Source: Nanobdellota archaeon
GTDB lineage: Archaea > Nanobdellota > Nanobdellia > Pacearchaeales > GW2011-AR1
Direction of reading: 5' to 3'
DNA: 64,000 nucleotides
Assembly (NCBI GenBank): GCA_030698805.1
Contig: JAUYMA010000004.1
Location: forward strand, 19,065-83,064
Shown: one piece after another, positions 17,022 to 37,471 of the stretch
Numbering within the stretch: position 1 is the stretch's first letter
Layout of the letters: every line of letters starts with the position of its first letter
Translations under genes and position numbers: made by a program
The notes under the pieces: generated by a model
What the model was told of the DNA's origin: nothing
The model's input: the letters and a program-made list of their open reading frames with translations, nothing else
Database searches by the model: none

Positions 17022-17704
17022 TTCTGAGCTTTATCTAACAAGCAGGAATTCTTCGAGTCTCCGCTCTTGAATAAACAGGATAATTTAACCATTCCTCTCT
17101 CTAAAAAAGAAACGCCTGATAGTATTTCTCTGCTATTCTTGCATTGATCATCTGTACAGATATTGCTTGCACATTCATAATTATTTTTACATTCTAGGCC
17201 ATTTTGTTTTTGCAAACTAATTATTTTATTTATGCCACAATATTTTTTCTCTTTTCCAGAATCCAAAGCAAATCTCTGGCCTTCTCCAAAACATTTATCA
17301 TTAGTAAAACACCCCTCACACTGATTTCCAGTACTCTGTTGCATGCTGTCTGTCAAATCCTGCTCAGCAAAAATTGCACCTGTCTCGTTCGAATCTTGAG
17401 ATCCTTCCATGTTGATCCCAGAATCGCACCTTCCTTGATTGCATGCAAGCTCACACTGATGATACTCGGCGGCACTTCTCCCATCATTACAAGTGAACTC
17501 AACCAAATAATTGCTATTTGGGCTATCTAAGCAAAAGTCCTGTAAAATGACGCCGTTACTCAAAGAAACTATTCCTACAGAAGAATAAGAAAGTCCGTCA
17601 GAATCACTTATGCAAGTAGGGGAATTTTCACCTGAAACATTTGTAAGGAAGGTAAATATAAAAGTGAGAGCAAACAACCCTAAATAAATATTCCACCTCA
17701 TCAT
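17006..17704 (-). CDS. secreted cysteine-rich protein
   Basis: Signal peptide MMRWNIYLGLFALTFIFTFLTNVSG. 20+ Cys. N-terminal C-x-DSDG...D-x-C...EFTC module plus EGF-like CxxC spacing in the C-terminal half. Confidence 0.55.
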   Translation of the reverse strand: MMRWNIYLGLFALTFIFTFLTNVSGENSPTCISDSDGLSYSSVGIVSLSNGVILQDFCLDSPNSNYLVEFTCNDGRSAAEYHQCELACNQGRCDSGINMEGSQDSNETGAIFAEQDLTDSMQQSTGNQCEGCFTNDKCFGEGQRFALDSGKEKKYCGINKIISLQKQNGLECKNNYECASNICTDDQCKNSREILSGVSFLERGMVKLSCLFKSGDSKNSCLLDKAQKWGLI

Positions 17705-17816
17705 AAGGAGATGTTTGGCCCTCTTATATATTTTTCGCTCGTATTTGAATAATATAATCTAAAATATAAAAAACAACTAGCGATAAGTTTAAATACGTAG
17801 TAATTTCTCTGCAAAT

Positions 17817-18062
17817 ATGGTAAACGGAATAGAAAGACCTCTTGATTTACTAAATGCTTCGAAGGGAAAAGAAGTATTAGTGCAGTTGAAAGGTGAAAAA
17901 CAGTTTGTTGGAACTCTTTTAGCATTTGATATCCACATAAATATTGTATTAGATAATGCCAAGGAAATGGATAACGGTCAAGCAAAGAAAAACATTGGTT
18001 TAACCTTCTTACGTGGAGATACAATAATCTATATCTCCCCTGCTTCAACTTCTTTAAAATAA
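17817..18062 (+). CDS. Sm-like archaeal protein (SmAP/LSm)
   Basis: Sm1 (VLVQLKGEKQFVGTLLAFDIHINIVLDNAKE) and Sm2 (FLRGDTIIYISP) motifs. Confidence 0.9.
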   Translation: MVNGIERPLDLLNASKGKEVLVQLKGEKQFVGTLLAFDIHINIVLDNAKEMDNGQAKKNIGLTFLRGDTIIYISPASTSLK

Positions 18063-18119
18063 TTAAAGATGCTTTCTTAAAAGATGTTGCTCCGATAACT
18101 AGGTATTTCTTCGGATCAA

Positions 18120-18557
18120 TTAGAAACGAAAGATTTCTATAAATTTCTCAATAAATTTTCTAGTTGAGGAATTAAGATTTAAAGTGAAAGATTTCCGAGG
18201 ATTAATCCAAACATATTCCTGGAGTTCCTCGTTTAATTTTACTTCATTGCTTTTGGCTTTAGCGGAGTAGTTAAGAAAGATCATATGTTTCTTCGAATTA
18301 TAGTCTTCAGGAAATATGCTTTCATCTACGCTGATCAATTGAATATTCTCAATGTCTAAATGGGTTTCTTCCTTAACCTCTCTTTTCACACCTTCCTCCA
18401 AGCTTTCTCCCAAATCAAGCTTTCCTCCTGGAACTACCCACTGATCTTTCCATTTATGCGACCTAGCAAGGAAGATATTGTTTTCATGATTATAAATGAT
18501 AACTCCCATAATCACTCTAGGAACCTCTGAATTTTGCTTGCGAGAATTTTCAGTCAT
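18120..18557 (-). CDS. Nudix hydrolase
   Basis: Canonical Nudix box PGGKLDLGESLEEGVKREVKEETHLDI. Confidence 0.8.
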   Translation of the reverse strand: MTENSRKQNSEVPRVIMGVIIYNHENNIFLARSHKWKDQWVVPGGKLDLGESLEEGVKREVKEETHLDIENIQLISVDESIFPEDYNSKKHMIFLNYSAKAKSNEVKLNEELQEYVWINPRKSFTLNLNSSTRKFIEKFIEIFRF

Positions 18558-19453
18558 ATGATAATTGAGTCCAAGTCTTTAACTAAGATTGAATTCTTGA
18601 AGAAATTTTTAGCCTCATTAAGAATTATTTTAGGATTATGTTCGTACCGCTGCGATAGATGGGTCAAGACCAACTTCTTTGCGCTTGCTTTCTTGGCAAT
18701 TTGCGCGGCTTCTTGAGCAGTCAAATGCTTATATTCTTTAGCTTGCCCGATTTCTGTAGAAGAAAAACTAGCTTCGCTCACCAATAAATCTGCTCCTTTG
18801 GCAATAGAAAAGGCTTTATCATTTAAAGCGCTATCCAAGATGAAAACTACCTTCTTGCCTTTATCTGTATAAGAAACGTCCTTAACTTTAATCTTCTTTC
18901 CATTAAAGACAATATCTTTGCCCTGTTGAAGGTCCTTCAATAAAGGAGAATTAGGTAATTTTAGCTTCTTTAATTTACTTTTATCAAGTCTCCTTTTATC
19001 TTTGAGAATAAAGCTATATGCATTGCAAGGTATTCCATGTTCCATATTTTGGGCCTCTAATAAGAACTCATTGCGGTCAATAAAAACGCCTGGACCAATT
19101 TCATTTACTTCCACTCTTATCTTTAATCCAAATATCATAGATTCAACTAAAGAAAACATTTTTTTAGTGCCTTTGGGCCCATATATCTTGAGAACTCCTT
19201 TATATTCAGACATGGCGAGGGTCTGCAACAGACCTGGCAAGCCTAAAACGTGATCTCCATGCCAATGCGTTATTAAAATTCTTGTAAGTTTGCAAGGACT
19301 TATGCCTGCATAGCGAAATTGCCTTTGTGTGCCTTCTCCGCAATCTATTAGAATATTCTCGTCTCTAAAACTTAACAAAATAGAAGTATGATTCCTCATC
19401 TTAGTAGGAATTGCATTACCTGTTCCTAAAAATGTAAGCTTAATGTTTTCCAT
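18554..19453 (-). CDS. rnz: ribonuclease Z (tRNA 3' endonuclease, metallo-beta-lactamase fold)
   Basis: LTFLGTGNAIPT...ITHWHGDHVLGLPGLL (HxHxDH). Start trimmed to MENIKLTFLG (ATG 19453). Confidence 0.9.
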   Translation of the reverse strand: MENIKLTFLGTGNAIPTKMRNHTSILLSFRDENILIDCGEGTQRQFRYAGISPCKLTRILITHWHGDHVLGLPGLLQTLAMSEYKGVLKIYGPKGTKKMFSLVESMIFGLKIRVEVNEIGPGVFIDRNEFLLEAQNMEHGIPCNAYSFILKDKRRLDKSKLKKLKLPNSPLLKDLQQGKDIVFNGKKIKVKDVSYTDKGKKVVFILDSALNDKAFSIAKGADLLVSEASFSSTEIGQAKEYKHLTAQEAAQIAKKASAKKLVLTHLSQRYEHNPKIILNEAKNFFKNSILVKDLDSIII

Positions 19454-19547
19454 ATGCCAGAAAACATATTTTAATTTATATATGTTGCTAAACCTGCTAA
19501 CTTTCTCAAGAAGCAAGGTTTAAAAGAAATAAAGTCCTTAAGTTATA

Positions 19548-23544: not shown

Positions 23545-24636
23545 ATGAGAAAAAAGATTTTATTTCTTTATAATGGGGGAACTATTGGCCAAGTTCCGGA
23601 AAAAAAAGAAGATGGCTCTTCCGTACTCGTGCCTCCAAAAAACTCTGAAGTGTTCAGAATAGCCTGCGAACCAATAATCAACGAACTAAACCAGGATTCT
23701 GAAATAATCTTTGAACACGTCACCTCCAAAGACAGTACAAATATGACTCCAAATGACTGGGAAAAATTGATATTTCGAATTAAAAAGGCTCAAGAGGAAG
23801 AGAAGTATGATGGAGTAGCCATTGCCCATGGTACCGATACTTTAGCATATACTTCAACCGCATTATCTCTTGCCTTGCATGGAAAATATCCTACAAAAAC
23901 AGGGCTAAAAATACCTATATGTATAACCGGCGCGCAAAATCCAATTTATCAGCCTGGAGGAGATGGAAGATTCAACCTAGAAAATCTATTTAGAACATTG
24001 AATAAGGCGATAGACACGGGCATTGCTGATGTGATGGTTAATTTTTGGGATAAAGTCTTTTTAGGAAGTAGAATATTGAAAGTGAGTGAAAAAGACTTTG
24101 ATGCTTTTAATTCTCCAAGTTTTCCTCCCGTAGGGACCATTGATGCTAAAGGAGTTACCTTGGACACTAGATTACTCAAGAAAAAATCTAATGCAGAAGA
24201 TAAGATTATGCTAGCGCCAAAATTTGGCAGAGGCGTTATAAGTTTTGAATTAACTCCTGGAACTGATCCAAATGTCGTCCTTGGTTTTATAACAAATGGC
24301 GGAATTTCCGCTCTAATCTTAAAATCTTTAGGAGAAGGTAATGTTTGTAATGAAGGTCAGTATAATCTTATACCTGTAATAAAACAAGCTTCTGAAGAAT
24401 ATTTGACCCCTATATTTATTACAACGAAATTTGTATCGGGGGGAGCGGGCGCAGCACATTACTCAACAGGATATGAACCAATTAAAGCAGGAGGCATTCC
24501 TTGTTATGATCATACCGATATCGCGGTAGATGTCAAAGTTAGATGGTTAATAGGTAACTCTATGTGTTCTTCAATTGAAGATTACAAAAAAGCTATGAAA
24601 ACTAGTTATGCTGGAGAAGTTACAGCTCAACTCTGA
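23545..24636 (+). CDS. L-asparaginase family protein (type I / GatD-like core)
   Basis: YNGGTIGQ (nucleophile Thr) and AHGTDTLAYTS motifs, 363 aa. Confidence 0.75.
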   Translation: MRKKILFLYNGGTIGQVPEKKEDGSSVLVPPKNSEVFRIACEPIINELNQDSEIIFEHVTSKDSTNMTPNDWEKLIFRIKKAQEEEKYDGVAIAHGTDTLAYTSTALSLALHGKYPTKTGLKIPICITGAQNPIYQPGGDGRFNLENLFRTLNKAIDTGIADVMVNFWDKVFLGSRILKVSEKDFDAFNSPSFPPVGTIDAKGVTLDTRLLKKKSNAEDKIMLAPKFGRGVISFELTPGTDPNVVLGFITNGGISALILKSLGEGNVCNEGQYNLIPVIKQASEEYLTPIFITTKFVSGGAGAAHYSTGYEPIKAGGIPCYDHTDIAVDVKVRWLIGNSMCSSIEDYKKAMKTSYAGEVTAQL

Positions 24637-24728
24637 TATTCAATTCTGGATAATTCTATCACTTGTATGACTTTCTTTCAGAATTCTCTATAACAAAGAA
24701 TTTTAAACAAACTTTCCTTCTATTAAGT

Positions 24729-25781
24729 ATGGTTAAATTTACAGTTTTTTCACAGCCCAAAAAGATCTATTCCAAAATGCTCCAAGATATCAAGGAAGCG
24801 AGAAAATACATATATCTTGAGACTTACATTTATAATCAAGATGCAATAGGGGCCGCTTTCAGGGACGCTTTGATAAAAAAAGCAAGGCAAGGTGTGCAAG
24901 TCAGGCTATTATTAGATTCTTGGGGGTCGACTGCTAAAAAGAAATATTTTAGATCCCTTATAGAAGCAGGCGGAGAAGTCAAATATTTTCGAGAGCTACG
25001 ATACGTTCTAAGGGCATTTAACAAGAATCATGAAAGAAATCATCGTAAACTTTTGGTCATCGATAATCGAATATCTTATGTGGGTTCGGCCAATATAACC
25101 TCTTCTTGTTTAAAATGGAGGGAGTTAGTGATAAGAATCAGGGGTTCGCTTTCGCCTACTCTAGCAAAATCATTTAAGCATAATTGGAGAAGCTCAGATC
25201 ACTTCGCAGAAGAAAAAGTGCAGGAATTACTCCATCATAGCTTCGAGATTCTTCAAGACCTCCCTTCCCCATTAAGGCGCAAAACTGAAAGAAGATACAC
25301 TAGTTTGATAAAACAAGCAAAAAAAAGCATTTTTATCATCACTCCCTATTTTATTCCGTCTGTAGGCATCAGAAGAGCCTTCGCAGAAGCTGCAAAAAAC
25401 GGAGTGAAGATAAAGATTGTCATCCCCCATATATCAGATGTCCGTATAGTCGATATTGTAAGGAACAGATACATTGGAAGTTTGCACAAAAAAGGCCTGG
25501 AATTTTATTATTATAAGCCTGAGACTCTGCATTCTAAGCTCTTAATTGTTGACGAGGAATTCTTCCTTCTAGGCTCATCAAATCTAGACTACCGAAGTTT
25601 CCTTCACCAATATGAATTAAACATCCTAGGCAAAGATAAAAAAATAATAATTGCATTGGTAGACTATTTTGAGAAAACCTTAAAGAACACTATTCCTTTC
25701 AGCTATCTGGAATGGAAAAATCGATCATCCTTTATAAGAACCATAGAAAGACTTATTGCACGAATTGCAAAATACCTATAA
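24729..25781 (+). CDS. phospholipase D-family protein with two HKD motifs (cardiolipin-synthase-like)
   Basis: HRKLLVIDNRISYVGSANI and HSKLLIVDEEFFLLGSSNLD. Start moved to ATG 24729. No N-terminal TM segment in that version. Confidence 0.75.
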   Translation: MVKFTVFSQPKKIYSKMLQDIKEARKYIYLETYIYNQDAIGAAFRDALIKKARQGVQVRLLLDSWGSTAKKKYFRSLIEAGGEVKYFRELRYVLRAFNKNHERNHRKLLVIDNRISYVGSANITSSCLKWRELVIRIRGSLSPTLAKSFKHNWRSSDHFAEEKVQELLHHSFEILQDLPSPLRRKTERRYTSLIKQAKKSIFIITPYFIPSVGIRRAFAEAAKNGVKIKIVIPHISDVRIVDIVRNRYIGSLHKKGLEFYYYKPETLHSKLLIVDEEFFLLGSSNLDYRSFLHQYELNILGKDKKIIIALVDYFEKTLKNTIPFSYLEWKNRSSFIRTIERLIARIAKYL

Positions 25782-25817: not shown

Positions 25818-26117
25818 ATGATAAAAATGAAAAGTCTTCAGTATCTTGCATCAAGTAATCATGTTAAGGTAAATCATGTATTAGAAGCTATTGAGGAATT
25901 CGCCACGAAAGGTGTTTCTTTTGATGTTAATCTGACAAAAAGAGTAATTGACAAGGCCCCATTGGAGTGGCGGCATTTAACCACTCTAAGAGGTTATTTT
26001 ACTCAAGGATTAAATAAAAGAATGGATTCTCCTCTTGAGTGTCAGCCGGAAACTCAGGATTATCATCTCCTTTTAAACTACATTCGCCAGAAAATAGATG
26101 AAAGATTCATAGGATGA
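25818..26117 (+). CDS. hypothetical protein
   Basis: 99-aa ORF convergent with the giant gene. No motif recognised. Confidence 0.3.
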   Translation: MIKMKSLQYLASSNHVKVNHVLEAIEEFATKGVSFDVNLTKRVIDKAPLEWRHLTTLRGYFTQGLNKRMDSPLECQPETQDYHLLLNYIRQKIDERFIG

Positions 26118-26124
26118 TCCTTTC

Positions 26125-29100
26125 TTATTTAACTATCTTTAATTCTCGTCCAGCTGTATTTTCAGTAGAGGTTTCTATAAAGGCAAGGTTTAATTCATTA
26201 TAATTAAACTCGGAAATTTGATCTTTCTTATCTGGAAGAATTGATAACCTATATCTCCCATCAGCTAAAAGCCGAACTATTCCGATTAAATCATCAGTCG
26301 AGTTATAAATTTTATTAGCTGTAATGTAAATTCCAGTAAGCTTGCTATCATACTTTATATTCATTTTAATTCCTTCATCAATCTTATATCCTTCTTCAGT
26401 ACCCTCTATAGTAAATACTGGAATTGTGCTTATAGGTTCAGCATTTTCATTTATAGGAGGCGTGACCACATTATTTTTAGGGGCAACATCTGAAGGAGGG
26501 ACACCCCCTTGGATATTTGCCTTCTCACTCTTCAATTTTCCTCTTGCAAAAACATCTAAAACTCTGGCCTTGATAAGCAAAAGTTCGGCTTTCTGCTTAT
26601 TTAGATATGTCTTGATAATGATATCCTCTATATTGCCAAGCAAAGTCCTAACTTCTCCCTCTGTAGGAGCATTATCCTTAGATTCGAACCTCTTGCTGAC
26701 GCTCTTCAGTTCTTCACTAAATTCAAATATCTTAGCATTTATTTGATCTTCAGACAATACTTCTCCCTTGCCTTGAAGGATAGAGATCTGTCTCTCCTCT
26801 AACTCGCTTAAAGTTTCATTTCTTACTAGTTCATTCCCGGCAGTAATTGCTTTATCAACACTCTTTTTATCGAGCCAACATCTTATTTGAGGGTCATCAC
26901 AATACCCCACATCTTGGAACCTTGTAGGATCAGTCGATATTCCAGGATTATTAGTTGCGCAAATTCTCACAATTCCTCGCTTGTAATCTTCAGGCAATAT
27001 GCTTTCTTCCAAAGCAAATTGAGGATTAGTGTTGGCCAAGATAGCCGCTGGATTAACTCCTCCGCTCACGCATTCTCTTTCAGACCCAATGTCTGTCCTT
27101 TCAATCTCACCTTGCACATATTTGTCTCTTACATAATTAACAGCAAAACTACTTGATACTTGTTTGAATCCGCAATTTTCTTCTCCATTTATAGAAACAC
27201 ATAATTCCTTATAGCCTGAAGGGGCTGCAAGATCAAGTGTCTGAGTATTATAATCTCCCTTGGAGATGAATCCCTGGGCGACTGTATATTCTACCGGAAC
27301 AGAGATGTAAGAGCCTTGAGGGGGATCCTTCAAATAAACTCTATAACTTACTCCTGCATCTCTTCCGGCAAAGATGTGATAAAATATTTTATATTGATCG
27401 AAAGGATGCAATGCGGCGTCATTTAATTTTATAGAACTAAACCATGCGTGGAATTGAGGAGGGCTATCAGGTTCTATTAAATTATCAAATTTAGTTGGGG
27501 CTTTAGCCGAGATAAATGCCTTGCAGAATGGAGTGCCAACTTCCTCCACAGATCTTATCTGGAATGCCTTCAATGAATTTACCGCATAAGTATTTTTGAA
27601 ATAGTTTACAGAGTTTTGCATGTTATTCCATGCTCCTTGCACTGTCAGATATTCTCCTCCTCCTCTCGCACTCTTTCCCCTATAAATGGAATCAACAAGT
27701 TTAGGCAGTATAACATTTGCAGCAGGAGCAGCTTGTCTCCAAAAGAACTCGCATAAGTAAATTGATGTTATCTGATCACAAATCCCTACAACTCTGCCAC
27801 TATCTACACTTTCTTGTAGGCAACTCCTGTAGCTCTTCAGGATGGAAACATATGAATCAATACCTGCGTGTATGCCAGAAAGACAAACAGGAATAGCAAT
27901 TTTTTCTTTTATATTAGGTAAGCAAAGTAGAGTGCTCCCAACTATCCCGCTTTGTATAACATCTGCAACCTGATAGTTTCCTCCAAGATTGCATCTGCTT
28001 GCCGGGCAAATAACTGGATCACAAACATTAAACAACGCATAACAGTCTTTAGGATCCATAAAGTCCTGACACTGCACGGTGGGAATATTTGCAGCCGCAG
28101 TAACATCATTTATCTTAAATCCGTTTACAACAATTTGTTTGTTCCCATACTGATTTGCAGCTTCTTCTAGGGCGCGTTTAGCTCGGTCTATTAAAGCTCT
28201 TACTTCTCTCGAGTCAGTAATTCCTGGAAAAGAATAAGACTGGCCACTATAAGTATTAAATTGTTCACATATATCGTCTCCTAACCCCTCATTAAACTGC
28301 TCCTTGCCATTTCTGCCTACATTGCACAACCAGAAATTAGCAACTCTCCCATTGGACTCAAATGCTCCAACCGAAGCTCCTCCAAAGGCAGGTAAAGTTT
28401 GCCTTGTAGCTACATACCATCCTCTATTCACATCGAAAGGAACTAATGCAGGCATTCCCTTGTAAGGTTCATTATCATAATACCGAGCTTTAGGATTCAA
28501 ATATTTGTTATTGTAAGTTGTAGAAGACTTCGAAATAATCTTTCCAACATGAAAGACACTTACAAAATTATTAATTTCATTTTGGCTCAAAGCGGCCCCC
28601 TGAGGATCCTCACTTTCATTGACTTTCACCATACTTTTGATACCGTAATTTCCCTGAGAATCTATCTCTACTCCAGCTGCATAATAACCTGGATCAATAG
28701 GTTTGGCCCCCCGAATTCCTTCTGTATTCAAAGAAGAAGTGTGGAAAAACATTGCGTCCTTTACATTTTGATTGCCTGGGCCTTCAGTCAAAGATTTAGC
28801 CAATCGATCATTAATTCTATTTATTGAAATAACGTTCCCATCAATGTTTTGCTGTTTATCGCTCTTTAGTTCAACAGGAGCTCTTGCATTAATCCCAGAA
28901 CTTTGCTTCAATTTTTCATTTAATATTTGATTATCTTGGACTCTCTCAAAAATACTTTGTAATTCCTGTTGAGAATCATTTGAAACCCCATCCAGACCTT
29001 TCTTCCTCAAAATTAAATTCAATTCCATCTCTCTAAGTTGTTCATAGCTGTATTCTGCATCTTCATATCCCTTTTCATTCTTAAGAATCTCGCTAACACT

Positions 29101-31638
29101 TACATCTTTGCCATTTACCCTTACTTTCTCAGACCCATATTTTTCTAAAAGGTGTCCCCTATAATTGTTTACTGAAGTATCCCTATTAACTGTCTTATCT
29201 CCTAAAAATCCCTCTTCCTGATAAACTTCTTCATTTGTTTTTATGTTATTATTAACTTCATTTATAGCGTCCTTATAAGCAGCTACATCCTTGTTGATAT
29301 TTGTAGATTCTCCTAAATAGCAATCATTCAAATTAGAATAGCTTCCTCTATCAACCATCTGCTGGCATTTAGTAGTCCATCCATTGTCTCCCCTCATTAC
29401 TTTCTGCCTTGCCAATCCCTCTCCGCTTAATCCTGTGACAAAATTCTTTATTGTTAATACTCCTGCTGTGGCAAAGCATGCTCCTTTCAATCCTTTTACA
29501 ACTTTACCAAGGTTATCTGCGATATTCTCCCATTTTGCAATAGTCTTATTTAGTCTCTCTATTTTCTCCAAGGATTTTTCAGGATTTAATTTTATCAATC
29601 TTTTCTCAATTCCTATATTAACGCTAAGATTAGCCACACTCTCTGGCCCATAGGTAATTGGATTAAGCCTTATCATAGCTACTTTCTCTATATTTGTCTT
29701 GTCTAGTTTAATTTGTGTGCCACATACGCTAATAACTCTTTCGTCATTTAAGCTCAAGCTTATTCTTCCCTGTTCTTTAAAGATAAAACCTCCTTGGTTG
29801 TCAGAACCCACTTTACAAATAGGAGTCACAAGAGCACTATTGGTCTCTACTCTCTCAACTCTAAACTTTCCAACTTGATTGCCATTTAAGGTTAAGTTCC
29901 CAATGGTGCCTTCTTCAATTACTTCAATATTATTGCCAATTGCAAAAGTAGCTGTAGATATTTTTTCAGGTTTAGACAAACTCCTAACTCTTAATGTTCG
30001 ATATTTTCCTTCCAAATAAATAACATCACTTGCATTTTCAGTATTTACCAAAGCAATCTTATCGAGTTCGTTCTGATATTTCTGCCTGCTCTTGGAATCC
30101 GGATAATTATTAAGGAGCTTGCTAATTAGGCGCGCCGCTTCATCGCTTCTAGATGAGTCTAGAGCCAAGTTAATTGCATATTCCAAAGCTTGTTCGCCAT
30201 AGAATCCAGTAGAATTTGCTATTCTAGTATCGGGATATTCTTCAGCAATACGTTCATATTCTTCTATAGCCTCGTCTATCGCTCCAACACTTTCACCGAT
30301 TTCATAATCGGGCTTCTGAATTTTATTAGGAGAGTTAAAGAGAGTATTATGATAAGCAATTAATCCGCTTCGAATCATATCCAGATTCCTTACCTTTTCA
30401 TCAAATTTGTCTTCTCCCACAACATAACCTGGAATTTCTTCCCAGTCAAGTTCTTCCCAATTATATTTAAGCAATTTACCCTCAAAATTCACGCCATAAA
30501 TAAAATTATTATCTAAAGCGATAGAGGTTATATTAGTCTCGTTGTTAAATCTTGGTATTTTTCCCTCAAATTGCGGAAAATTCAATCCTAATCTTAAAAC
30601 TACTCTTTTTGAACCACAATCTACTGTAACACTTCCTGTATTAAGGGTATCATTTACTTCTATATCCCTGACTACACACCTTCCATTTAGGAAATCACTG
30701 CCCTCATACACTTCAAACACATCACTGCTCCCTCCAGGATCTCCAAGTTCAAGCCTCGCTTTGTTCTCGGATTTTATAAATCCAGCATAGTCTGCTCTCA
30801 ATCCCGCTCGGCAATAACTACCTGGTAAGAATATATCATTAGAAGGCCTTCCTTGAATGATTCTAGTTTGAGTAACTAATCTATCCCCTTGATAAATTCC
30901 AATATCTGCATAATCGGACTCTGCTTCTAGTAACCTCAAATAATAACGCCCATTCCAAAAACTCTGTTTGTTTTTTTCTTCCCTTTCCCATTCTTCATCA
31001 CTCACGGGACTTAAAACAAACTCTGCCCTTCCAACTCCTAAAGTATTCTCCGTATCATAGAATATCCTGGCAGTGAGATTGACATTTACAAATTCAGGTA
31101 ACTTTTCCTCAATTTCATTTCTCTTTAATACAACCACGACATATCCAATATTTCTATCAATCGGACTGCCCAATAATTTTTCTCTGGAATTCAAGGCCAC
31201 CCTAGATGGATGGAATCCCACATCCAAAACCTCTTGAGGTTTCTTAGAATCAAAAGTTATCCTCCTTATTTTAGTTATGTCTACAAGAGGATTAATTTTA
31301 ATGGCTTCTATTTGACAAAATACAGGAACATTCTGTTCGGCCAATAAATCGCTTCTTACTACCGCCGGTTGGCATCCCCCAGTAGGAATTCTTAACAGGA
31401 TATCTTGCCTCCCTACGCAAATATCCTGGCCCTCTATTTTAGGATAAAAAGTATCGAACCCTAAAAAGCCTCCTCCTGAAGAAGAATAATAATTTTCAAA
31501 GCTGGGTCTTGAAATCCCTGGATTAGAAGATATAGTAGATGCATAACTACTGCCGCTGAATTGCGCAGCACCTGCCAGATGCAAGGCTAAAAAGAATAAA
31601 GCCATGCAAATAACAATTTTCAATTCTCGATTATTCAT
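26125..31638 (-). CDS. giant secreted protein (1837 aa), no recognisable family
   Basis: Uninterrupted 5.5-kb ORF. Signal peptide MNNRELKIVICMALFFLALHLAGAAQF. TPR-like helical stretch, a 10-Cys cluster and a coiled-coil-like C-terminal third. 8-nt ATGAATAA overlap with the upstream gene. Confidence 0.7.
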   Translation of the reverse strand: MNNRELKIVICMALFFLALHLAGAAQFSGSSYASTISSNPGISRPSFENYYSSSGGGFLGFDTFYPKIEGQDICVGRQDILLRIPTGGCQPAVVRSDLLAEQNVPVFCQIEAIKINPLVDITKIRRITFDSKKPQEVLDVGFHPSRVALNSREKLLGSPIDRNIGYVVVVLKRNEIEEKLPEFVNVNLTARIFYDTENTLGVGRAEFVLSPVSDEEWEREEKNKQSFWNGRYYLRLLEAESDYADIGIYQGDRLVTQTRIIQGRPSNDIFLPGSYCRAGLRADYAGFIKSENKARLELGDPGGSSDVFEVYEGSDFLNGRCVVRDIEVNDTLNTGSVTVDCGSKRVVLRLGLNFPQFEGKIPRFNNETNITSIALDNNFIYGVNFEGKLLKYNWEELDWEEIPGYVVGEDKFDEKVRNLDMIRSGLIAYHNTLFNSPNKIQKPDYEIGESVGAIDEAIEEYERIAEEYPDTRIANSTGFYGEQALEYAINLALDSSRSDEAARLISKLLNNYPDSKSRQKYQNELDKIALVNTENASDVIYLEGKYRTLRVRSLSKPEKISTATFAIGNNIEVIEEGTIGNLTLNGNQVGKFRVERVETNSALVTPICKVGSDNQGGFIFKEQGRISLSLNDERVISVCGTQIKLDKTNIEKVAMIRLNPITYGPESVANLSVNIGIEKRLIKLNPEKSLEKIERLNKTIAKWENIADNLGKVVKGLKGACFATAGVLTIKNFVTGLSGEGLARQKVMRGDNGWTTKCQQMVDRGSYSNLNDCYLGESTNINKDVAAYKDAINEVNNNIKTNEEVYQEEGFLGDKTVNRDTSVNNYRGHLLEKYGSEKVRVNGKDVSVSEILKNEKGYEDAEYSYEQLREMELNLILRKKGLDGVSNDSQQELQSIFERVQDNQILNEKLKQSSGINARAPVELKSDKQQNIDGNVISINRINDRLAKSLTEGPGNQNVKDAMFFHTSSLNTEGIRGAKPIDPGYYAAGVEIDSQGNYGIKSMVKVNESEDPQGAALSQNEINNFVSVFHVGKIISKSSTTYNNKYLNPKARYYDNEPYKGMPALVPFDVNRGWYVATRQTLPAFGGASVGAFESNGRVANFWLCNVGRNGKEQFNEGLGDDICEQFNTYSGQSYSFPGITDSREVRALIDRAKRALEEAANQYGNKQIVVNGFKINDVTAAANIPTVQCQDFMDPKDCYALFNVCDPVICPASRCNLGGNYQVADVIQSGIVGSTLLCLPNIKEKIAIPVCLSGIHAGIDSYVSILKSYRSCLQESVDSGRVVGICDQITSIYLCEFFWRQAAPAANVILPKLVDSIYRGKSARGGGEYLTVQGAWNNMQNSVNYFKNTYAVNSLKAFQIRSVEEVGTPFCKAFISAKAPTKFDNLIEPDSPPQFHAWFSSIKLNDAALHPFDQYKIFYHIFAGRDAGVSYRVYLKDPPQGSYISVPVEYTVAQGFISKGDYNTQTLDLAAPSGYKELCVSINGEENCGFKQVSSSFAVNYVRDKYVQGEIERTDIGSERECVSGGVNPAAILANTNPQFALEESILPEDYKRGIVRICATNNPGISTDPTRFQDVGYCDDPQIRCWLDKKSVDKAITAGNELVRNETLSELEERQISILQGKGEVLSEDQINAKIFEFSEELKSVSKRFESKDNAPTEGEVRTLLGNIEDIIIKTYLNKQKAELLLIKARVLDVFARGKLKSEKANIQGGVPPSDVAPKNNVVTPPINENAEPISTIPVFTIEGTEEGYKIDEGIKMNIKYDSKLTGIYITANKIYNSTDDLIGIVRLLADGRYRLSILPDKKDQISEFNYNELNLAFIETSTENTAGRELKIVK

Positions 31639-33484
31639 TTAAAATAAATACTCTCCCGCCTTCAAAGGCCTCATAATTATATTGTAATCCTTCTAAAGAA
31701 TTTGGAACCGGCATAGATGGAACACTCAACACTAATAACCCTTTTTCAAGAGAGTCTGCAAACAAATAGACTTCTGCCTGGCCTCCCCCTATAAGCGCCT
31801 TCTCAATTTTGGATTCTGGAATATTTATATCGAAACACTGTTCCTTTGTAGATCCGAAGAATCCCAATATTCCAGAGCTTGTTATCTCCGTACATTCCCT
31901 CTTACTGCTTGCTGGAATAGTTATGCTTGAATTGCCGTACACATATACGCTCACATTATAATATCCCTCTGCTAATTCTGTTTTATTATTGTCCGGTAAA
32001 GCAGCAGCTGCTCTCCTCTCTCCTTCAAAATAAACAATTGCTTCTCCTCCTAAATCAGCTCCTCCAGATCTAACTTTAATTTCCACATCATATAGCTTAT
32101 CCAATATTAAATCTACACCTCCTGCAGAATTGCTTGAAAAGTATTTCTGGCTATCTTTATATCCTTCAGCCTTCGCTTTTATTAATCCTGAAAGACAAGC
32201 TGGAGCCTTTCCTTCAAATACTCCATTGACACTCTCACCTAATTCACACTCTTGTTCAAAACAAGTATAGCTTATATTGGCATTCACCTTGTTTAATTCT
32301 ACATCGTAAATTTCAACCTTAACATCTTGAGTCTTATATTGACATACATCAAATTCTTCATCAGTCTGCTCTAAGCCGTCTAACTGAGAGTAAGGAGTTT
32401 GTCTAGGGACATTTTTATCGATTACTACTGCTACGGGAAACTGAAAGATCTCATTATTACTATAGACTTGAATCATAACCGGAAAATTAATATCATAGAC
32501 GAAATGATATGGTGCGTAACAGAAACCCATTATTCCTAATCCAGCCTCATTGCCGATAGGTTTGGCAACCATTAACTCGCCTTCACCACCATGAATCTCT
32601 ATTTTAGTAGGCCACTCTTGAGAATATAAGAAGTTGACTGCCCCATCAGACTTCTCATTTATTATAAAATATTTATTCTCTTTCTTCTGAAGATTGTAAT
32701 TTCCGCTTTTCAGTTTTAAGTGAGCTACATTAGCTTCTAATCCGTCCTTAATTTCTTGCATTACTTCTCTTGATTTCCAAATTGTGGGAGAACAATCAAG
32801 CTCTACTCCGTCAACTGGAGCATAAAGTCTTAAGACGTCCTCCGCATATTGCTCTAAAAACGACTCGTTTTTTTCTTTTTGATAAATCCTCAGAGCATCA
32901 TTATAAAATTTTCCAAATTCGCTGGCCATTTCAGCCCTGTGCTCTCTCTTTTGGGCAGAACTACCATTCTTAGAAACGCTCATATCAGCTAGTATATTTA
33001 TAAGGACTTTCTCATCCCCGATATCCACCTTGACTTCGGGAGTTCCAATATCAATTGAGTACCCTCGAGCATACAAATTATCAAAATTGCAATCAACGTT
33101 CTGCTCAATAAAATTCTCTAATTCTTTTTCTATCTCTGATTTCTTGGGAACTTGTTCTTTGATAATTCCATTAGCAGTGATGTAATACCAATAAGGAACC
33201 TCAAAACCTAAGAAATCCAAGTGAGAAGAAGATGGTGCATACTCGCTGCCTGGAGAAAACTCTCCAATATCTATCCTGCCTCCTTGGCTTCCCGCCAAAT
33301 CCAGACCTTGTCTAGCGGTCTCTTCAATGCAAGATCTATATTGGTTGAAAACTGCATCGAATTCGGATGCTTGGTTCTTTATAGAATCTTGAGGCTTTAA
33401 GATTAAAAATAGGGCAAGACCGATAATTATAACTCCTAATATAACGAATAATGCCAGTTGCCCTCTTTTATTAAATTTAATCAT
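31631..33484 (-). CDS. 617-aa surface protein with class III (type IV pilin-like) signal-peptide layout
   Basis: From ATG 33484: MIKFNKRGQLALFVILGVIIIGLALFLIL (basic leader, G-Q, about 22 hydrophobic residues). The rest is unassignable. The track ORF start (33517) is a non-ATG upstream extension. Confidence 0.65.
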   Translation of the reverse strand: MIKFNKRGQLALFVILGVIIIGLALFLILKPQDSIKNQASEFDAVFNQYRSCIEETARQGLDLAGSQGGRIDIGEFSPGSEYAPSSSHLDFLGFEVPYWYYITANGIIKEQVPKKSEIEKELENFIEQNVDCNFDNLYARGYSIDIGTPEVKVDIGDEKVLINILADMSVSKNGSSAQKREHRAEMASEFGKFYNDALRIYQKEKNESFLEQYAEDVLRLYAPVDGVELDCSPTIWKSREVMQEIKDGLEANVAHLKLKSGNYNLQKKENKYFIINEKSDGAVNFLYSQEWPTKIEIHGGEGELMVAKPIGNEAGLGIMGFCYAPYHFVYDINFPVMIQVYSNNEIFQFPVAVVIDKNVPRQTPYSQLDGLEQTDEEFDVCQYKTQDVKVEIYDVELNKVNANISYTCFEQECELGESVNGVFEGKAPACLSGLIKAKAEGYKDSQKYFSSNSAGGVDLILDKLYDVEIKVRSGGADLGGEAIVYFEGERRAAAALPDNNKTELAEGYYNVSVYVYGNSSITIPASSKRECTEITSSGILGFFGSTKEQCFDINIPESKIEKALIGGGQAEVYLFADSLEKGLLVLSVPSMPVPNSLEGLQYNYEAFEGGRVFILNE

Positions 33485-33626
33485 TCTTTTCCCTCTTATT
33501 GTTTCGAGTTTTCTCAACTTTGTCTTTAATAAGCCTTAAAATTTCGCTATTTATATCCTGGTTAATACTTCCTTTAAACCTTTCCCACAGGGATTCATCC
33601 TCTATAAGCAGAAGATACTTTTTCAT
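33477..33626 (-). CDS. 49-aa ribbon-helix-helix-like (CopG/Arc-like) mini-protein
   Basis: Hand translation: MKKYLLLIEDESLWERFKGSINQDINSEILRLIKDKVEKTRNNKREKND. Strand-helix-helix pattern with a basic tail. agagg lies 6-10 nt upstream of the ATG. 8-nt ATGATTAA overlap with the 617-aa gene. Confidence 0.4.
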   Translation of the reverse strand: MKKYLLLIEDESLWERFKGSINQDINSEILRLIKDKVEKTRNNKREKND

Positions 33627-33663
33627 TTGAGCCTCTTTTTAATACTTCTAGCTAATTGCCAGT

Positions 33664-33671
33664 TATATAAA
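33664..33671 (-). promoter_or_regulatory. TATA-like box (TTTATATA) upstream of the RHH/617-aa/1837-aa genes
   Basis: Located in the only intergenic gap of the module (33627-33703), 38-45 nt upstream of the RHH ATG. Confidence 0.35.
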
Positions 33672-33703
33672 AACCTTTCTTATTAACTAACTTACTTAAT
33701 AAC

Positions 33704-34282
33704 TTACTTAGTAAGCGATAATCTATCCATGAAAAGTGTTATCACGATCAAAATCGCTAAAAAAATAATCTCAACCAGCCCCAAAACATAAAAGAAATAT
33801 AGATTCTCCTTGTTTTCTTCTCCCTGTGAAGGAAGATTTACATCTAGTTTAATCCATATTCCCAATCCCGCGTCTGCATTTTCAGCTTCCAGAAAAAGCA
33901 CACCATGAAAATATCCTGATTGATTAGCTTTTAAGCATACAAGAAGATCATCCTCTAAAAAAATAGTAATATCACGAGCATATTTGCTTTCTATGCCTAA
34001 ATCTTCTGCGTTTTTATCATATAATGAAATATCTCTCATTGGATTAGTGCTCCATTTATCATAAATTTTCAATAAGTTGGGTAGGCCATCTCCTTTCAAT
34101 TTTAAATTTTGGCATATAAATTCTCCAGGCTTTGTTTTGAAATGCATCTCTGGAGGGGAAGCGCTCAATCTAAAAGCCAGAGTTGTATTGGTCAAGAAAA
34201 TGGCTAGAAAAATTAATAGTAAACAACAAATTTTTAGTTTACTGGGAGACTGCAAAAAATTTAACATTGGTTGTGTGCCCAT
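33704..34282 (-). CDS. signal-peptide protein with beta-sandwich-like ectodomain and C-terminal TM anchor
   Basis: 192 aa. N-terminal hydrophobic KICCLLLIFLAIFLTNTTLA. LSASPPEMHFKTKPGEFICQNLKLKG (PapD/MSP-like strand pattern). C-terminal YFFYVLGLVEIIFLAILIVITLF. Confidence 0.5.
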   Translation of the reverse strand: MGTQPMLNFLQSPSKLKICCLLLIFLAIFLTNTTLAFRLSASPPEMHFKTKPGEFICQNLKLKGDGLPNLLKIYDKWSTNPMRDISLYDKNAEDLGIESKYARDITIFLEDDLLVCLKANQSGYFHGVLFLEAENADAGLGIWIKLDVNLPSQGEENKENLYFFYVLGLVEIIFLAILIVITLFMDRLSLTK

Positions 34283-34745
34283 TTAAATCTCTAAGAATTG
34301 TAGAGGGATAATTCCGGAGGTCCATTTTTGCATAAATATAATCACTTTTATTCTCTCCTAATTTTGCAGGGGCAGATATATTAAAATTGAATATTCCTAT
34401 TTTAGAATAAGGTTCGGTGGTTCTTCTTTGAAAATAAGTATAATTGAATATATCTTCAGAAGAATCAGTCAATTTCGGAGTCACAATTATTCCCACATTG
34501 CCCGTATTGGTAACATTAATTCTTACATTAGAAGTTTGCCTTCCGTTTTCTACCTCTCCAAAATCTACTCTATCTTGAACCTCTAAGCTAATTACTGGAT
34601 CGTCTACTTGATCCCCTAGAACATCTACTTCAAAGATAGAAACATCCGCTGCATTAGAAGGCATGATAATAAATAAGAAGATTATAAAGGAAAATGTTCC
34701 TTTTGCTAAAAGTTTAACCCTATTGTCAATTATATACTGGCTCAT
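34239..34745 (-). CDS. secreted beta-sandwich-like protein (possibly TasA/camelysin-like)
   Basis: 168 aa. Signal-anchor FSFIIFLFIIMPSNA. DFGEVENGRQTSNVRINVTNTGNVGIIV and the C-terminal ...NVKFFAVSQ resemble the TasA/camelysin pattern (weak, by eye). Confidence 0.5.
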   Translation of the reverse strand: MSQYIIDNRVKLLAKGTFSFIIFLFIIMPSNAADVSIFEVDVLGDQVDDPVISLEVQDRVDFGEVENGRQTSNVRINVTNTGNVGIIVTPKLTDSSEDIFNYTYFQRRTTEPYSKIGIFNFNISAPAKLGENKSDYIYAKMDLRNYPSTILRDLNGHTTNVKFFAVSQ

Positions 34746-34969: not shown

Positions 34970-36784
34970 ATGGAGAAAATAGCTAAAGTTTGGGTCTCAG
35001 TTTTTAGCTTTCTATCATTAATAACAATAATTGAAAATTTCTTGCATTACAAAGATCTGAATAATGTATTATTCATTCTTTTAGCATTGGCTTCTAATTT
35101 TGCCTTGGCAATCTTAATCATCTCCCTTAACAATTTAATCTTCAAAAAGACAAGAAACAAGTACTATACTATAGCTTTAAACACAATATTTTTTATAATG
35201 ATCTCCTGGTATGTGGCAAGTACATTTATAAGATTTTTCTTTGGCAACTTTGCCTCCTTCTCAGGACTGGGATTTTATTGGATGTCTACCAGTTTGTGGT
35301 CCCTATCTCTAATATTTTTCATTGTTCTATTAATCTCTGCTACGCTTTCGACATTCATGTCTAGAAAGATAGAACCTCGCAAAGAAAGATCGTTAGATAA
35401 ATTAGCAGTAACAGTCCTATTTTACGTTTTTATCATGCTGATAATACCAAATTTTTATCTCCAACATGCTACCCCTTTCACTAACATTTTAGGGAGCAAT
35501 CCTTTAAAAATAGACGTTGTACCGGTATATCAAACCAATAGTTCTACCGAGGCTCTTTTGAAAGAAATAACTTATTCTGGAAAAAATCCCAATATAGTCA
35601 TTGTTATGCTTGAATCTCTTTCCCCTGATCACATTCATTACTATGGTTATGAAAAAAACATTACTCCCAACTTAGATTGGTTTTTTGACAATGGAATAGC
35701 TTTTGAAAATGCTTATTCCAGCGCCACCCATACTGAGTATTCTCAAACTTCTTTTTTATCATCAAGATATCCCCTTAAAAGTAGAATAAGAGATACTTTC
35801 AATGAAGATTACCCTCGAGATTTTATATGGGATATTCTTAAAAATAATAACTACACCACGGGCTATATTACCTCTCAAGATGATCGATGGTTAAATTTAG
35901 AAAGTTATTGGAAAAAAGAGAATCTTGACTTTTATTGGAGCGGATTCATGGATAAGAAAGCCTCTGAAGTCAAAGGAGTATTTGGCCTAAGAAACGATGA
36001 TAGCAGAACCTTAGAAATAGCTGAATCTTTTATCAATTCAAGCGAAAAGCCATTTTTCTTATATATGAATCTCCAATCTACACATTATCCTTATGTTTAC
36101 CCAGAAGAATATGCTATTTTCCAGCCGGATGAATTATCTCCTCTGACATTTTATACCTATGTACCTAAAAAAGATAATCAGGTAATTCTTAATAGATATG
36201 ACAATTCCATATACTATATGGATGCGCAAATCGGAAAGTTAAAGAAAGGCCTTGAAGATAAAGGTATTCTAAATAACACTATCGTAGTTATAATTGCGGA
36301 CCATGGAGAAATGATAGAAGAACAGCATGGAGATAGGTTCCATGGTTTAAACATTTATGAGGGCAATATAAAAGTGCCTTTAGTTATATTTGTGCCCGGG
36401 GAAAAGCCATCATTAATAAAGAATAGGGTAAAAAGCATAGATGTAGTGCCTACAATTTTAGAGATTATTAAATTTCAATCCTCAGAGATCTTTCAAGGTG
36501 AAACAATGAAAAAAGACTCTGAGATATTCATTATGGCTCAGAGTCAAAATTTTATTATGGGGATTATTAAAGATGATATTAAATATATTATAAATGTCAA
36601 TAATGATAAGCCTGATGAAGCTTATAATCTCACAGCAGATCCTGAAGAACTAAATAATATTCTAGAGAATGGAAATTATTCGCAATTTTTCCCTTATAGG
36701 CAAAGAATTCTATCCTGGTATGCTTGCCAAATCAATTACTATCAAAACGAAGGCTATAAATCAAATTCCTCCATTAAGTGCTAA
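34970..36784 (+). CDS. LtaS/phosphoglycerol-transferase-like membrane enzyme (alkaline-phosphatase superfamily)
   Basis: About 5 N-terminal TM helices plus an extracytoplasmic domain with IVIVMLESLSPD (metal Glu), SSATHTEYS (Thr nucleophile candidate; no CxPxR sulfatase motif) and IIADHGE. Confidence 0.75.
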   Translation: MEKIAKVWVSVFSFLSLITIIENFLHYKDLNNVLFILLALASNFALAILIISLNNLIFKKTRNKYYTIALNTIFFIMISWYVASTFIRFFFGNFASFSGLGFYWMSTSLWSLSLIFFIVLLISATLSTFMSRKIEPRKERSLDKLAVTVLFYVFIMLIIPNFYLQHATPFTNILGSNPLKIDVVPVYQTNSSTEALLKEITYSGKNPNIVIVMLESLSPDHIHYYGYEKNITPNLDWFFDNGIAFENAYSSATHTEYSQTSFLSSRYPLKSRIRDTFNEDYPRDFIWDILKNNNYTTGYITSQDDRWLNLESYWKKENLDFYWSGFMDKKASEVKGVFGLRNDDSRTLEIAESFINSSEKPFFLYMNLQSTHYPYVYPEEYAIFQPDELSPLTFYTYVPKKDNQVILNRYDNSIYYMDAQIGKLKKGLEDKGILNNTIVVIIADHGEMIEEQHGDRFHGLNIYEGNIKVPLVIFVPGEKPSLIKNRVKSIDVVPTILEIIKFQSSEIFQGETMKKDSEIFIMAQSQNFIMGIIKDDIKYIINVNNDKPDEAYNLTADPEELNNILENGNYSQFFPYRQRILSWYACQINYYQNEGYKSNSSIKC

Positions 36785-37471
36785 ATGAAAGAAAAAAACA
36801 ATATTTCCTGCATAATCCCTGCGTATAACGAAGGCAAAAGAATAGAGAGAGTATTGAAAGTTATTCAAAACCATCCCTCAATAAAGGAAATTATTGCAAT
36901 TAATGATGGTTCAACAGACAATACTGCCCAAATAATTAAAAAATTTAGGGGGATCAAGCTCATAAACCTGAAACAAAATAGAGGAAAAGCTTCAGCTCTA
37001 GCAGCAGGGATAAAAATGGCTAAGTATTCCCACCTCCTCTTTATTGATGCAGACCTGTTGAATCTCAGAAAAAAGGATATAAGCAACTTAATTGCACCTA
37101 TTAAAAAAAACGAGGCAGATGTATCTTTAAGCCTAAGAAAAAATGCTCCTTTACATTTTAAGCTCATAGGCCTAGACTTTCTTTCTGGAGAAAGGACAAT
37201 TCCAAAATGTCTATTCAGGGATCTTGAAGAATTAGAGAGGATACCTGGATGGGGGATAGAAGTTTATATGAATAAACAGATAGTTGAAAAAAAACTAAGG
37301 ATCAAAGTGGTGAATTGGAATAGAGTTATAAGTCCATATCCCTCCGTTAAATTTGGTTTTGTCAAGGGAAATATAAGGCTCTTATCTATGATCTTGCAAA
37401 TAATGCGCACAATAGGAGTATGGGGGATGCCATTACAGATCATGAAAATGCTAAGATTGAAAGTTAAATAA
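36785..37471 (+). CDS. family 2 glycosyltransferase (dolichyl/polyprenyl-phosphate sugar synthase-like)
   Basis: SCIIPAYNEGKRI, INDGSTDNT, FIDADL (DxD). Starts 1 nt after the LtaS-like stop. Confidence 0.85.
   Translation: MKEKNNISCIIPAYNEGKRIERVLKVIQNHPSIKEIIAINDGSTDNTAQIIKKFRGIKLINLKQNRGKASALAAGIKMAKYSHLLFIDADLLNLRKKDISNLIAPIKKNEADVSLSLRKNAPLHFKLIGLDFLSGERTIPKCLFRDLEELERIPGWGIEVYMNKQIVEKKLRIKVVNWNRVISPYPSVKFGFVKGNIRLLSMILQIMRTIGVWGMPLQIMKMLRLKVK

Follow-up and report, generated by a model that had tools for sequence, protein, structure and literature searches.

The window analysed here is a 64,000-nucleotide stretch of a Nanobdellota archaeon (assembly GCA_030698805.1, contig JAUYMA010000004.1, positions 19,065 to 83,064), and five stacked genes on its minus strand, named A to E in the order in which they are read, occupy positions 26125-34745. 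Comparison with related loci indicated that C, D and E form a conserved unit in which a small protein precedes a membrane-anchored protein and a giant secreted protein. We infer, with about even confidence, that C-D-E is the core operon of a lineage-specific cell-surface complex of DPANN archaea, made of an anchor and a giant with a variable tip, which serves contact with partner cells. The features on which the argument depends are as follows.

34811/34812-34882, minus strand: tRNA-Val (GAC), flanking the module on the same strand
34239-34745, minus strand: gene A, 168 amino acids (aa), open reading frame (ORF) call
33704-34282, minus strand: gene B, 192 aa, ORF call; likely true start at 34267
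33675-33718, no strand assigned: (T-W-A-S)n tract, 44 nt, alternating TTAS/TAAS units
33664-33684, minus strand: promoter core AATAAGAAAGGTTTTTATA, a purine run like a TFB-recognition element (BRE) plus a TATA box
33632-33639, minus strand: Shine-Dalgarno-like AAAGAGG, 5 nt upstream of the ATG of C
33477-33626, minus strand: gene C, 49 aa, ORF call
31631-33484, minus strand: gene D, 617 aa counted from the ATG, ORF call
26125-31638, minus strand: gene E, 1837 aa, ORF call
26719-28551, minus strand: E core (aa 1030-1640), the most conserved part of E
26128-26541, minus strand: hypervariable C-terminal tail of E (about aa 1700-1837), from alignment and model

An earlier reading made from the sequence alone (hereafter the sequence-only reading) had described five stacked ORFs, a 44-nt A/B overlap, a 77-nt gap between B and C holding a TATA box, two 8-nt overlaps further down and the boundaries of the module, and all of these were confirmed. 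The TATA box is TTTATATA at 33664-33671, and direct reading of the sequence gave the overlaps as ATGATTAA at the C/D junction (33477-33484) and ATGAATAA at the D/E junction (31631-31638). The 44-nt overlap applies to the annotated start of B, and an alternative TTG start of D at 33517 would yield a protein of 628 aa. Downstream, a convergent 99-aa ORF (25818-26117, plus strand) stops 7 nt from the stop codon of E. Hydropathy analysis found one N-terminal hydrophobic segment each in A, B, D and E, in agreement with the signal or anchor starts previously noted for the four larger products. The G+C content of the module is uniform with that of the surrounding DNA.

Database searches, whose counts were limited by a word prefilter, returned more than 1398 relatives of D and more than 417 relatives of E, all of them 'hypothetical' or nameless and typically 40-50% identical over more than 90% of their length. 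The closest relatives came from metagenome-assembled genomes (MAGs) labelled Nanoarchaeota, Pacearchaeota or Woesearchaeota. An exhaustive HMMER search of 1.84 billion cluster representatives with the E core gave 1068 matches, 913 of them at E ≤ 1e-30, and D relatives were encoded by 538 species-representative genomes among those scanned. Searches of A to E against Pfam, NCBIfam, PHROGs and PADLOC gave nothing above threshold, including a member-by-member Pfam scan of the window E and 25 diverse members, and PDB searches with single sequences and profiles of D, E, C and A detected no relative. The view that no product belongs to a named family was thus upheld.

Gene order was compared across 85 fetched loci. 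D and E were adjacent in all loci with room for both, most commonly with a 4-nt overlap (46 of 80 loci), and overlaps of 4 or 8 nt predominated at the C-D junction. Because such overlaps dominate across loci, the translational coupling proposed from the window is conserved and not a local accident. C lay directly upstream of D in about 65 of 80 loci. The A-B pair was found upstream in 20-21 of the 64 loci with at least 1.5 kb of upstream sequence each, about one third, a figure that held after iterated searches with hidden Markov models. Every A-B pair sat immediately before the operon on its strand, and none was detected at any other place in the flanks; in loci without C the pair led straight into D, with 4 nt between the B stop and the D start in locus L001. 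The complete five-gene order was seen in about ten distinct loci besides the window. Since A-B occurs in about a third of the loci whereas C-D-E is widespread, we regard C-D-E as the core and A-B as an accessory pair of a sub-clade. Conservation of the gene order among related DPANN genomes, which the sequence-only reading had made a test of its proposal, therefore holds for C-D-E, whereas the five-gene stack is confined to the sub-clade. One MAG (CAZVKQ01) carried two D-E copies, at loci L017 and L085; the L017 copy has the repeat tract without C, and its D apparently lacks the N-terminal 17 residues. The second copy may be a degenerate duplicate or a sign of strain heterogeneity.

Evolutionary rates were estimated as the median identity to the window protein across one common genome set. 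The values were 56% for the E core, 52% for the E N-domain, 48% for D and 67% for C, next to 52% for S3Ae, 55% for L44e, 57% for the RNase Z-like protein, 65% for S8e, 67% for FtsY and 89% for TFB. A and B reached 34% and 31%. These medians indicate that D and E evolve like housekeeping proteins of the ribosomal type, and A and B much faster.

The C-terminal tail of E behaved differently from its body. The sequence after the last conserved motif (..CWLD..) ranged from 105 to 1179 aa among orthologues. When E cores were 60-70% identical, BLAST detected similarity between the tails in 4% of pairs, and in 37% of pairs with cores at least 70% identical; the nearest relatives of the window E had cores 81-85% identical and tails 37-39% identical. 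In the AlphaFold2 (AF2) model, the terminal beta domain (aa 1742-1837) had a predicted local distance difference test score (pLDDT) above 90. In some orthologues the tail contains an enzyme, either a lysozyme of the phage-tail type (PF18013, 2e-36) or a trypsin-like peptidase (PF13365, 3e-13). According to precomputed Pfam assignments, P0055 and P0116 have trypsin-like domains and P0101 has TSP_3 repeats, and P0055 is set in the canonical C-D-E context of a 55-aa protein, a 619-aa protein and a giant. That an archaeal surface protein carries a peptidoglycan hydrolase points to partners that are bacteria. By analogy, a slow body with a rapidly replaced and occasionally enzyme-bearing tip is the architecture of recognition or effector proteins, and the tail is proposed to be the distal, partner-contacting tip. 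Phage receptor-binding and tail-fibre proteins and CdiA/Rhs-type proteins likewise combine a slow body with a C-terminal tail that is replaced or diverged and sometimes enzymatic. Unlike them, E showed no homology to these proteins and had no match in BFVD at E ≤ 1e-3, and its locus is chromosomal, single and housekeeping-like, with no immunity gene or toxin motif noted.

The body of E begins with a Sec-type signal peptide, and no other segment exceeded the hydropathy threshold, so that E has no membrane anchor. Conserved blocks (aa 60-330, 480-560, 640-800 and 1040-1620) alternate with variable stretches at aa 330-470, 900-1030 and beyond about 1640. Of its 31 cysteines about 25 are invariant, many of them within TQCQDFM..C..FNVCDPVICP.SRC in the E core, and its 13 N-glycosylation sequons in 1837 aa represent no excess. 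The AF2 model of aa 640-1837 (pLDDT 70, predicted TM-score (pTM) 0.38) contains a helical bundle including a 52-residue helix with the conserved, small-residue-rich GLKGACFATAGVLT.KNF.TGLSG, mixed beta regions, a beta-sandwich at aa 1395-1495 and a coiled helical linker at aa 1603-1710. Foldseek searches of PDB and BFVD with this model returned nothing at E ≤ 1e-3, only generic Ig/FnIII-like sandwiches. Homology of E to viral fusion proteins, tail fibres, SlaA and teneurin/Tc shells was rejected at the Foldseek sensitivity used. Conserved, small-residue-rich hydrophobic helices, of which GLKGACFATAGVLT.KNF.TGLSG is an example, occur within this secreted protein at aa 716-740 (about 29419-29493) and aa 1196-1390, where AF2 confidence is low although conservation is highest; they may be buried oligomer interfaces or membrane-active segments.

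Very large secreted proteins are known from other host-dependent DPANN archaea, as exemplified by SPEARE of Ca. Nanohaloarchaeum antarcticus (PMC6642349) and by fam00969, a giant murein-transglycosylase family of Pacearchaeota and Woesearchaeota (PMC8204110). Both have been proposed to act in cell-cell interaction, and some E orthologues likewise carry a peptidoglycan hydrolase domain. In contrast to these giants, the conserved body of E has no protease, nuclease, adhesin or SLT domain, and E is always accompanied by D, and usually by C, in a coupled operon.

D has the features of an anchored stalk. Its N-terminus in the window reads MIKFNKRG and, beyond the putative cleavage point, QLALFVILGVIIIGLALFLIL. 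G8 and Q9 were at least 90% conserved in the alignment, and among 114 homologue N-termini position -2 was K or R, position -1 was G or A only and position +1 was Q, with about 20 hydrophobic residues after it. This [KR]-[GA]-Q substitution pattern is the one expected for an archaeal class III (prepilin-type) cleavage site, such as the 'RGQ...' of archaellins and pilins, and the N-terminus of D is short and charged, as in class III signal-peptide proteins generally. The AF2 model of D (pLDDT 85.6, pTM 0.69) shows a transmembrane helix (residues 6-28), a linker (30-38, pLDDT below 50) and a separate helix (43-66). An alpha/beta domain spans about 88-360, three beta-sandwich domains in tandem occupy 386-590, and the chain ends in a helix. 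Foldseek matched this model in PDB to the Bacillus anthracis TIE protein (1.7e-6), a streptococcal ancillary pilin (5.5e-6), PitA, SpaC, the FimD usher and SlaB (8qox_B, 6.4e-4), with adhesins and TIE proteins spanning 1.7e-6 to 7e-5. The TM scores were low (0.1-0.26), indicating shared stalk-type CnaB/transthyretin-like sandwiches and not a specific family. D is proposed to be a membrane anchor and stalk. The string of sandwiches below a head domain recalls Gram-positive pilus tip or ancillary adhesins and TIE proteins (6fwv, 4oq1, PitA 7w6b, SpaC 6m48); unlike these, D shares only the generic domain type, at 7-10% identity, belongs to an archaeal envelope, is anchored at its N-terminus, lacks a sortase signal and gave no evidence of isopeptide bonds.

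The third member of the unit, C, is nearly invariant, with MKKYLLLIEDE.LW..FK...DIN.EI followed by a basic tail in 67 distinct orthologues of 42-60 aa. It is predicted to be cytoplasmic, is the first gene of the core operon and is translationally coupled to D. Immediately upstream lies an arrangement that was recovered by alignment: a tract of about 40-45 nt, the BRE/TATA element directly after it, an unconserved leader of 26-69 nt and the ribosome-binding site, which recurs as AAAAGAGG in most orthologous loci. Of 67 distinct regions upstream of C, 58 retain the promoter core, at a distance of 26-69 nt from the start codon. The window tract contains the palindrome CTTACTAAGTAAG, and stop codons interrupt each of its six reading frames; across loci the consensus of the tract is ..TtA.TaA.TtA.TaA.TtA.TaAgTTAaTAAGaAAGaTTTaTATA. 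The tract occurs once in the 64-kb window and in none of 20 shuffles, the promoter core is single at up to 3 mismatches, and the strict palindrome TTACTNAGTAA and the extended BRE/TATA are each single in the window. Across 1.33 Mb of related loci, 68 of 74 tracts lay within 140 nt upstream of C and 3 more at the equivalent operon position. Tract and C were both present in 63 loci and both absent from 13, and a single locus had C with a weak tract. As tract, promoter and C are contiguous, few deletions could yield this co-occurrence, and the Fisher p-value therefore overstates the evidence.

Within the tract a 4/8-nt unit is repeated in both direct and inverted orientation, as in the repeat arrays to which small repressors bind, and the tract is a candidate operator of the operon; C is a candidate small operon regulator and the most likely binder of the tract. 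The sequence-only reading had called C a ribbon-helix-helix (RHH)-like regulator. The RHH assignment was not confirmed: among the window C and 36 family members compared with the Pfam RHH families, 1 of the 36 matched Arc at E = 0.2 and none matched another RHH family, and the C profile found no RHH protein in PDB. With hhalign, the C alignment reached 10% probability against Arc, at helix B (DINSEI versus VNSEI), and 0.9% against CopG, a comparison that gives a lead more than a test. The regulatory role itself is indirectly backed by the operator-like tract. In size (44-49 aa), position as the first gene of its operon and basic tail, C resembles the small RHH repressors omega, CopG and Arc; it shares with Arc the '(V/I)NSEI' opening of the second helix, and its operon has, like theirs, an array of short repeats, direct and inverted, abutting the promoter. 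C differs from them in having no significant profile match and in the period of the tract, 4/8 nt and not 7 or about 10, and its putative strand 'YLLLIE' is more hydrophobic than is usual in a strand that reads DNA.

We propose that D would insert in the membrane through its prepilin-like [KR]-[GA]-Q segment, possibly after class III processing, and would project the alpha/beta domain and the stalk of three beta-sandwiches. E, a proposed giant ectodomain, would be exported by Sec in amounts roughly equal to those of D; since E has no anchor of its own, D would keep it on the cell. The large, slow-evolving and disulfide-rich body of E would be a shaft or scaffold, and its fast-changing C-terminal tail the distal end touching another cell, with a hydrolase or protease there in some species. 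With such a tail at its distal end, sometimes bearing a peptidoglycan hydrolase or protease, the complex would serve for attachment to the envelope of a host or partner cell and possibly for breaching it. C would bind the repeat tract and set the expression level of the operon, and A and B would be small Ig-like secreted or membrane accessory surface components placed upstream in a sub-clade that includes this genome. The extracellular structure envisaged by the sequence-only reading is in line with this model as far as a contact device is concerned, given the adhesin- or pilus-stalk-like fold of D and the variable, enzyme-bearing tail of E. Its alternative of a fibre was not borne out: none of the products looks like a subunit that polymerises, and the available sequence showed no pilus machinery.

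Several observations weigh against partner contact and against parts of this mechanism. Adhesins do not usually evolve at the slow, housekeeping-like rate seen in D and the E core, which would fit a structural envelope role equally well. No relative of E with known function was detected by sequence, profile or fold searches; its Cys-rich segment was modelled as helical at pLDDT below 50 despite its top conservation, and only a small share of the tails carry an enzyme (about 3 of 120 by precomputed Pfam). The D-E interaction is deduced only from operon coupling and from the missing anchor of E. The N-terminal helix of D is broken, with a low-confidence linker, and is not one continuous pilin-type helix. 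When ten D N-termini were scanned against PF04021 (Class_IIIsignal), PF01917 (Arch_flagellin) and PF07790 (Pilin_N) at E ≤ 10, the best values, 7.3 for PF04021 and 0.13 for PF01917, fell far short of the cut-offs; the test is weak because models of short hydrophobic segments have little sensitivity. A motif scan of the window and the flanks of the 85 loci (about 1.3 Mb) found no PibD-like prepilin peptidase, no FlaI-like pilus ATPase and no [KR]GQ N-terminus other than that of D; as it covers the window and flanks only, it is uninformative for whole genomes. The C family lacks a significant RHH match, and the contiguity of tract, promoter and C means that their joint presence or absence may reflect deletions and not functional linkage. 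Type IV pilus systems have also been described in one preprint as missing from DPANN genomes. The literature on this point is contradictory, since for some Nanoarchaeota and DPANN a 2026 preprint describes filament systems of type IV that include a PilY-like adhesin (10.64898/2026.04.22.720090).

A bolder form of the contact hypothesis is that C-D-E is a host-attachment organelle, possibly envelope-breaching or feeding, of the whole Pacearchaeales-type lineage, with a new architecture unrelated to pili, S-layers and known adhesins, in which a stalk with a prepilin-like anchor carries a disulfide-rich protein of 200 kDa whose recognition or effector tip can be exchanged. C would be a new mini-regulator reading the (TWAS)n operator, and the tip would encode host specificity, from which the hosts of uncultured Pacearchaeota could be predicted. 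We put this forward tentatively, as possible and on the doubtful side. It would meet a gap, Pacearchaeota having been described as unusually strongly host-attached with no known genomic basis (10.1101/2020.05.14.094862). Lineage-specific families of unknown function, mostly extracellular or membrane proteins, are shared by Pacearchaeota and Woesearchaeota (PMC8204110), and few Pacearchaeota proteins, some of them 'hypothetical', were recorded in one metaproteome (PMC11537232). No published description of D- or E-type families was found in the searchable literature.

The main and serious rival is a two-component surface (S-) layer or envelope scaffold, in which D would be a SlaB-like anchored stalk, E a SlaA-like canopy and the variable tail its exposed, fast-evolving face, the two proteins together making a regular layer around cells that have no wall. 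We consider it rather unlikely. As in SlaA/SlaB of the Sulfolobales (PDB 8qox), an adjacent, here co-transcribed, pair joins a smaller membrane-anchored protein with a beta-sandwich stalk, matched by Foldseek to SlaB itself, to a much larger, unanchored secreted protein. The presence of D in 538 species-level genomes and the housekeeping-like rate are as for an essential structural element, and no other S-layer candidate was identified within the window. However, E resembles neither SlaA nor any other S-layer protein solved in PDB, whether in sequence or in fold, and the check for homology to characterised S-layer proteins, on which the sequence-only reading had staked its proposal, found none. 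The SlaB match is weak (TM 0.12-0.15) and concerns generic sandwich domains, the anchor of D is N-terminal and prepilin-like whereas that of SlaB is a C-terminal transmembrane helix, and the gene order is reversed. Many cysteines and no excess of N-glycosylation sequons, as found in E, are atypical for archaeal S-layer proteins. The hypervariable tail, with a lysozyme or protease domain in some orthologues, is a further difference from SlaA/SlaB, as is the dedicated small protein with its operator-like tract, which suggests regulated and not simply constitutive expression.

A second alternative is the tip of a type IV filament, with D as a large minor-pilin-like adaptor processed by a class III peptidase, E as a PilY1-like tip adhesin and the machinery encoded elsewhere. 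This appears unlikely, for all that the D N-terminus follows the prepilin cleavage-site rule across its 114 homologues. Minor-pilin/PilY1 operons have a pilin-like gene followed by a large adhesin, an order which D and E resemble, E being a large non-pilin surface protein next to a [KR]-[GA]-Q and hydrophobic N-terminus. The filament systems with a PilY-like adhesin reported from some Nanoarchaeota and DPANN would fit as well. Unlike known type IV modules, D-E shows no class III, pilin or flagellin profile match and split helices in place of one long helix, and in neither the 64-kb window nor the related flanks did the simple motif scan reveal an ATPase, a platform protein, a major pilin or a peptidase; the reported lack of pilus systems in DPANN argues in the same direction. 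E also differs from PilY1 in its modelled part (aa 640-1837), where no beta-propeller was predicted.

Alternatively, E could chiefly be the scaffold or enzyme of a surface-tethered degradative or scavenging platform, which would digest dead cells or polymers outside the cell for a metabolically minimal organism and make no specific contact with a host. The lysozyme or trypsin-like peptidase of some tails and the giant murein-transglycosylase proteins of the lineage are in keeping with it, and the other giant of the window, a subtilase with LamG and FG-GAP, shows that large surface hydrolases exist in this genome. Nevertheless we find this very unlikely: no catalytic domain can be recognised in the window E or in about 97% of the listed orthologues, nothing enzyme-like matched the conserved 1600-aa body, and the turnover of the tail resembles diversification of a recognition domain more than conservation of an enzyme. 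Finally, the giant unannotated ORFs and the flanking tRNA-Val, a kind of site that sometimes marks integrated elements, might suggest mobile-element or viral cargo, or an assembly or annotation artefact, an origin effectively refuted by the uniform G+C content, the housekeeping neighbours, the recurring macro-synteny (TFB, S8e, LSm and RNase Z-like genes), the absence of D relatives from 2.9 million IMG/VR viral contigs and of PHROGs or PADLOC matches, and ORFs intact in hundreds of independent assemblies, which also settles the earlier concern about assembly artefacts.

The accessory proteins were examined with their orthologues. A starts with a signal peptide or anchor, behind which a small secreted domain rich in beta structure is predicted; an NNTGN motif is conserved in the orthologue alignments. 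The window A and 18 aligned orthologues matched no Pfam or NCBIfam family, hints of DUF1573/HYDIN Ig-like domains staying below threshold. The N-terminal 'SD.s.FE.n' prompted a comparison with TasA-like fibre subunits, which was rejected as no Peptidase_M73/TasA or SipW-cognate model matched. B, always paired with A, has a signal peptide, a beta-rich ectodomain, a C-terminal transmembrane segment by hydropathy and a short basic tail, and is predicted to be a type I membrane protein. Its true start is probably the second ATG, at 34267 (ML.FLQ), because orthologues align from this methionine; the A/B overlap would then be 29 nt.

The window also encodes LeuRS, aIF1A, TFB, S8e, S3Ae, L44e, SRP54, FtsY, RadA, a tRNA-splicing endonuclease, nine tRNAs and few metabolic genes, a content that fits a reduced DPANN archaeon. 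A scan for promoters and terminators of the bacterial type gave counts at chance level and is irrelevant for an archaeon. Just past tRNA-Val and divergent from the module, 34970-36784 (plus strand) encodes a multi-pass membrane protein with a sulfatase/lipoteichoic acid (LTA)-synthase-like domain (2e-52), abutted by a family 2 glycosyltransferase at 36785-37471 (plus strand); these envelope-modification genes may or may not be functionally linked to the module. Downstream of E lie the convergent 99-aa ORF, which has no family, a phospholipase D-type (cardiolipin-synthase-like) enzyme at 24663-25781 (plus strand) and a GatD-like asparaginase-family protein at 23545-24636 (plus strand), none of which is kept beside E in other loci. 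Macro-synteny does recur: in L001, L003, L004 and L005, the first few kilobases downstream of E hold TFB, S8e, LSm and an RNase Z-like gene of the beta-lactamase fold; in the window, TFB, S8e and the RNase Z-like gene (14431-19516) lie 7-12 kb beyond the 3' end of E.

Other exported proteins were noted at a distance from the module. A type I signal peptidase at 6528-7151 (minus strand; Peptidase_S26, 2e-33) is the obvious candidate for cleaving the Sec-type signal peptides of A, B and E. The second giant ORF, 46969-52194 (plus strand, 1741 aa), has a signal peptide, a subtilase domain (Peptidase_S8, 4e-63) and LamG-like and FG-GAP repeats; it is unrelated to E and represents another large surface protein in a minimal genome. 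Small secreted or anchored proteins with no assigned family are encoded on the minus strand at 16521-17021, 17006-17704, 7093-7623 and 7647-8399, among them one with (GYGS)n repeats, one that is Cys-rich, one with low-complexity 'GGAA' and one with MVVSKKGG followed by a hydrophobic stretch; the products of 7647-8399 and 17006-17704 were scanned and had no Pfam family.

Pacearchaeota-type DPANN are abundant and uncultured and are among the most metabolically reduced cells known. A variable-tip, anchored giant surface protein is a known general kind; what is new are these proteins, their pairing and the control region formed by C and the (TWAS)n tract. The operon is a concrete candidate for a contact apparatus, present in hundreds of species and evolving at a rate like that of ribosomal proteins, with a tip that changes faster than everything around it. 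If partner contact is indeed its role, recombinant tails could serve as probes to identify or fish hosts, D and E could serve as markers in cryo-electron tomography, and the (TWAS)n tract with the 45-aa C would be a compact new archaeal regulator-operator pair. If D and E instead build an S-layer, it would be a new, non-homologous type for a major archaeal radiation. Either way, contact device or S-layer, two large 'hypothetical' families would gain a function.

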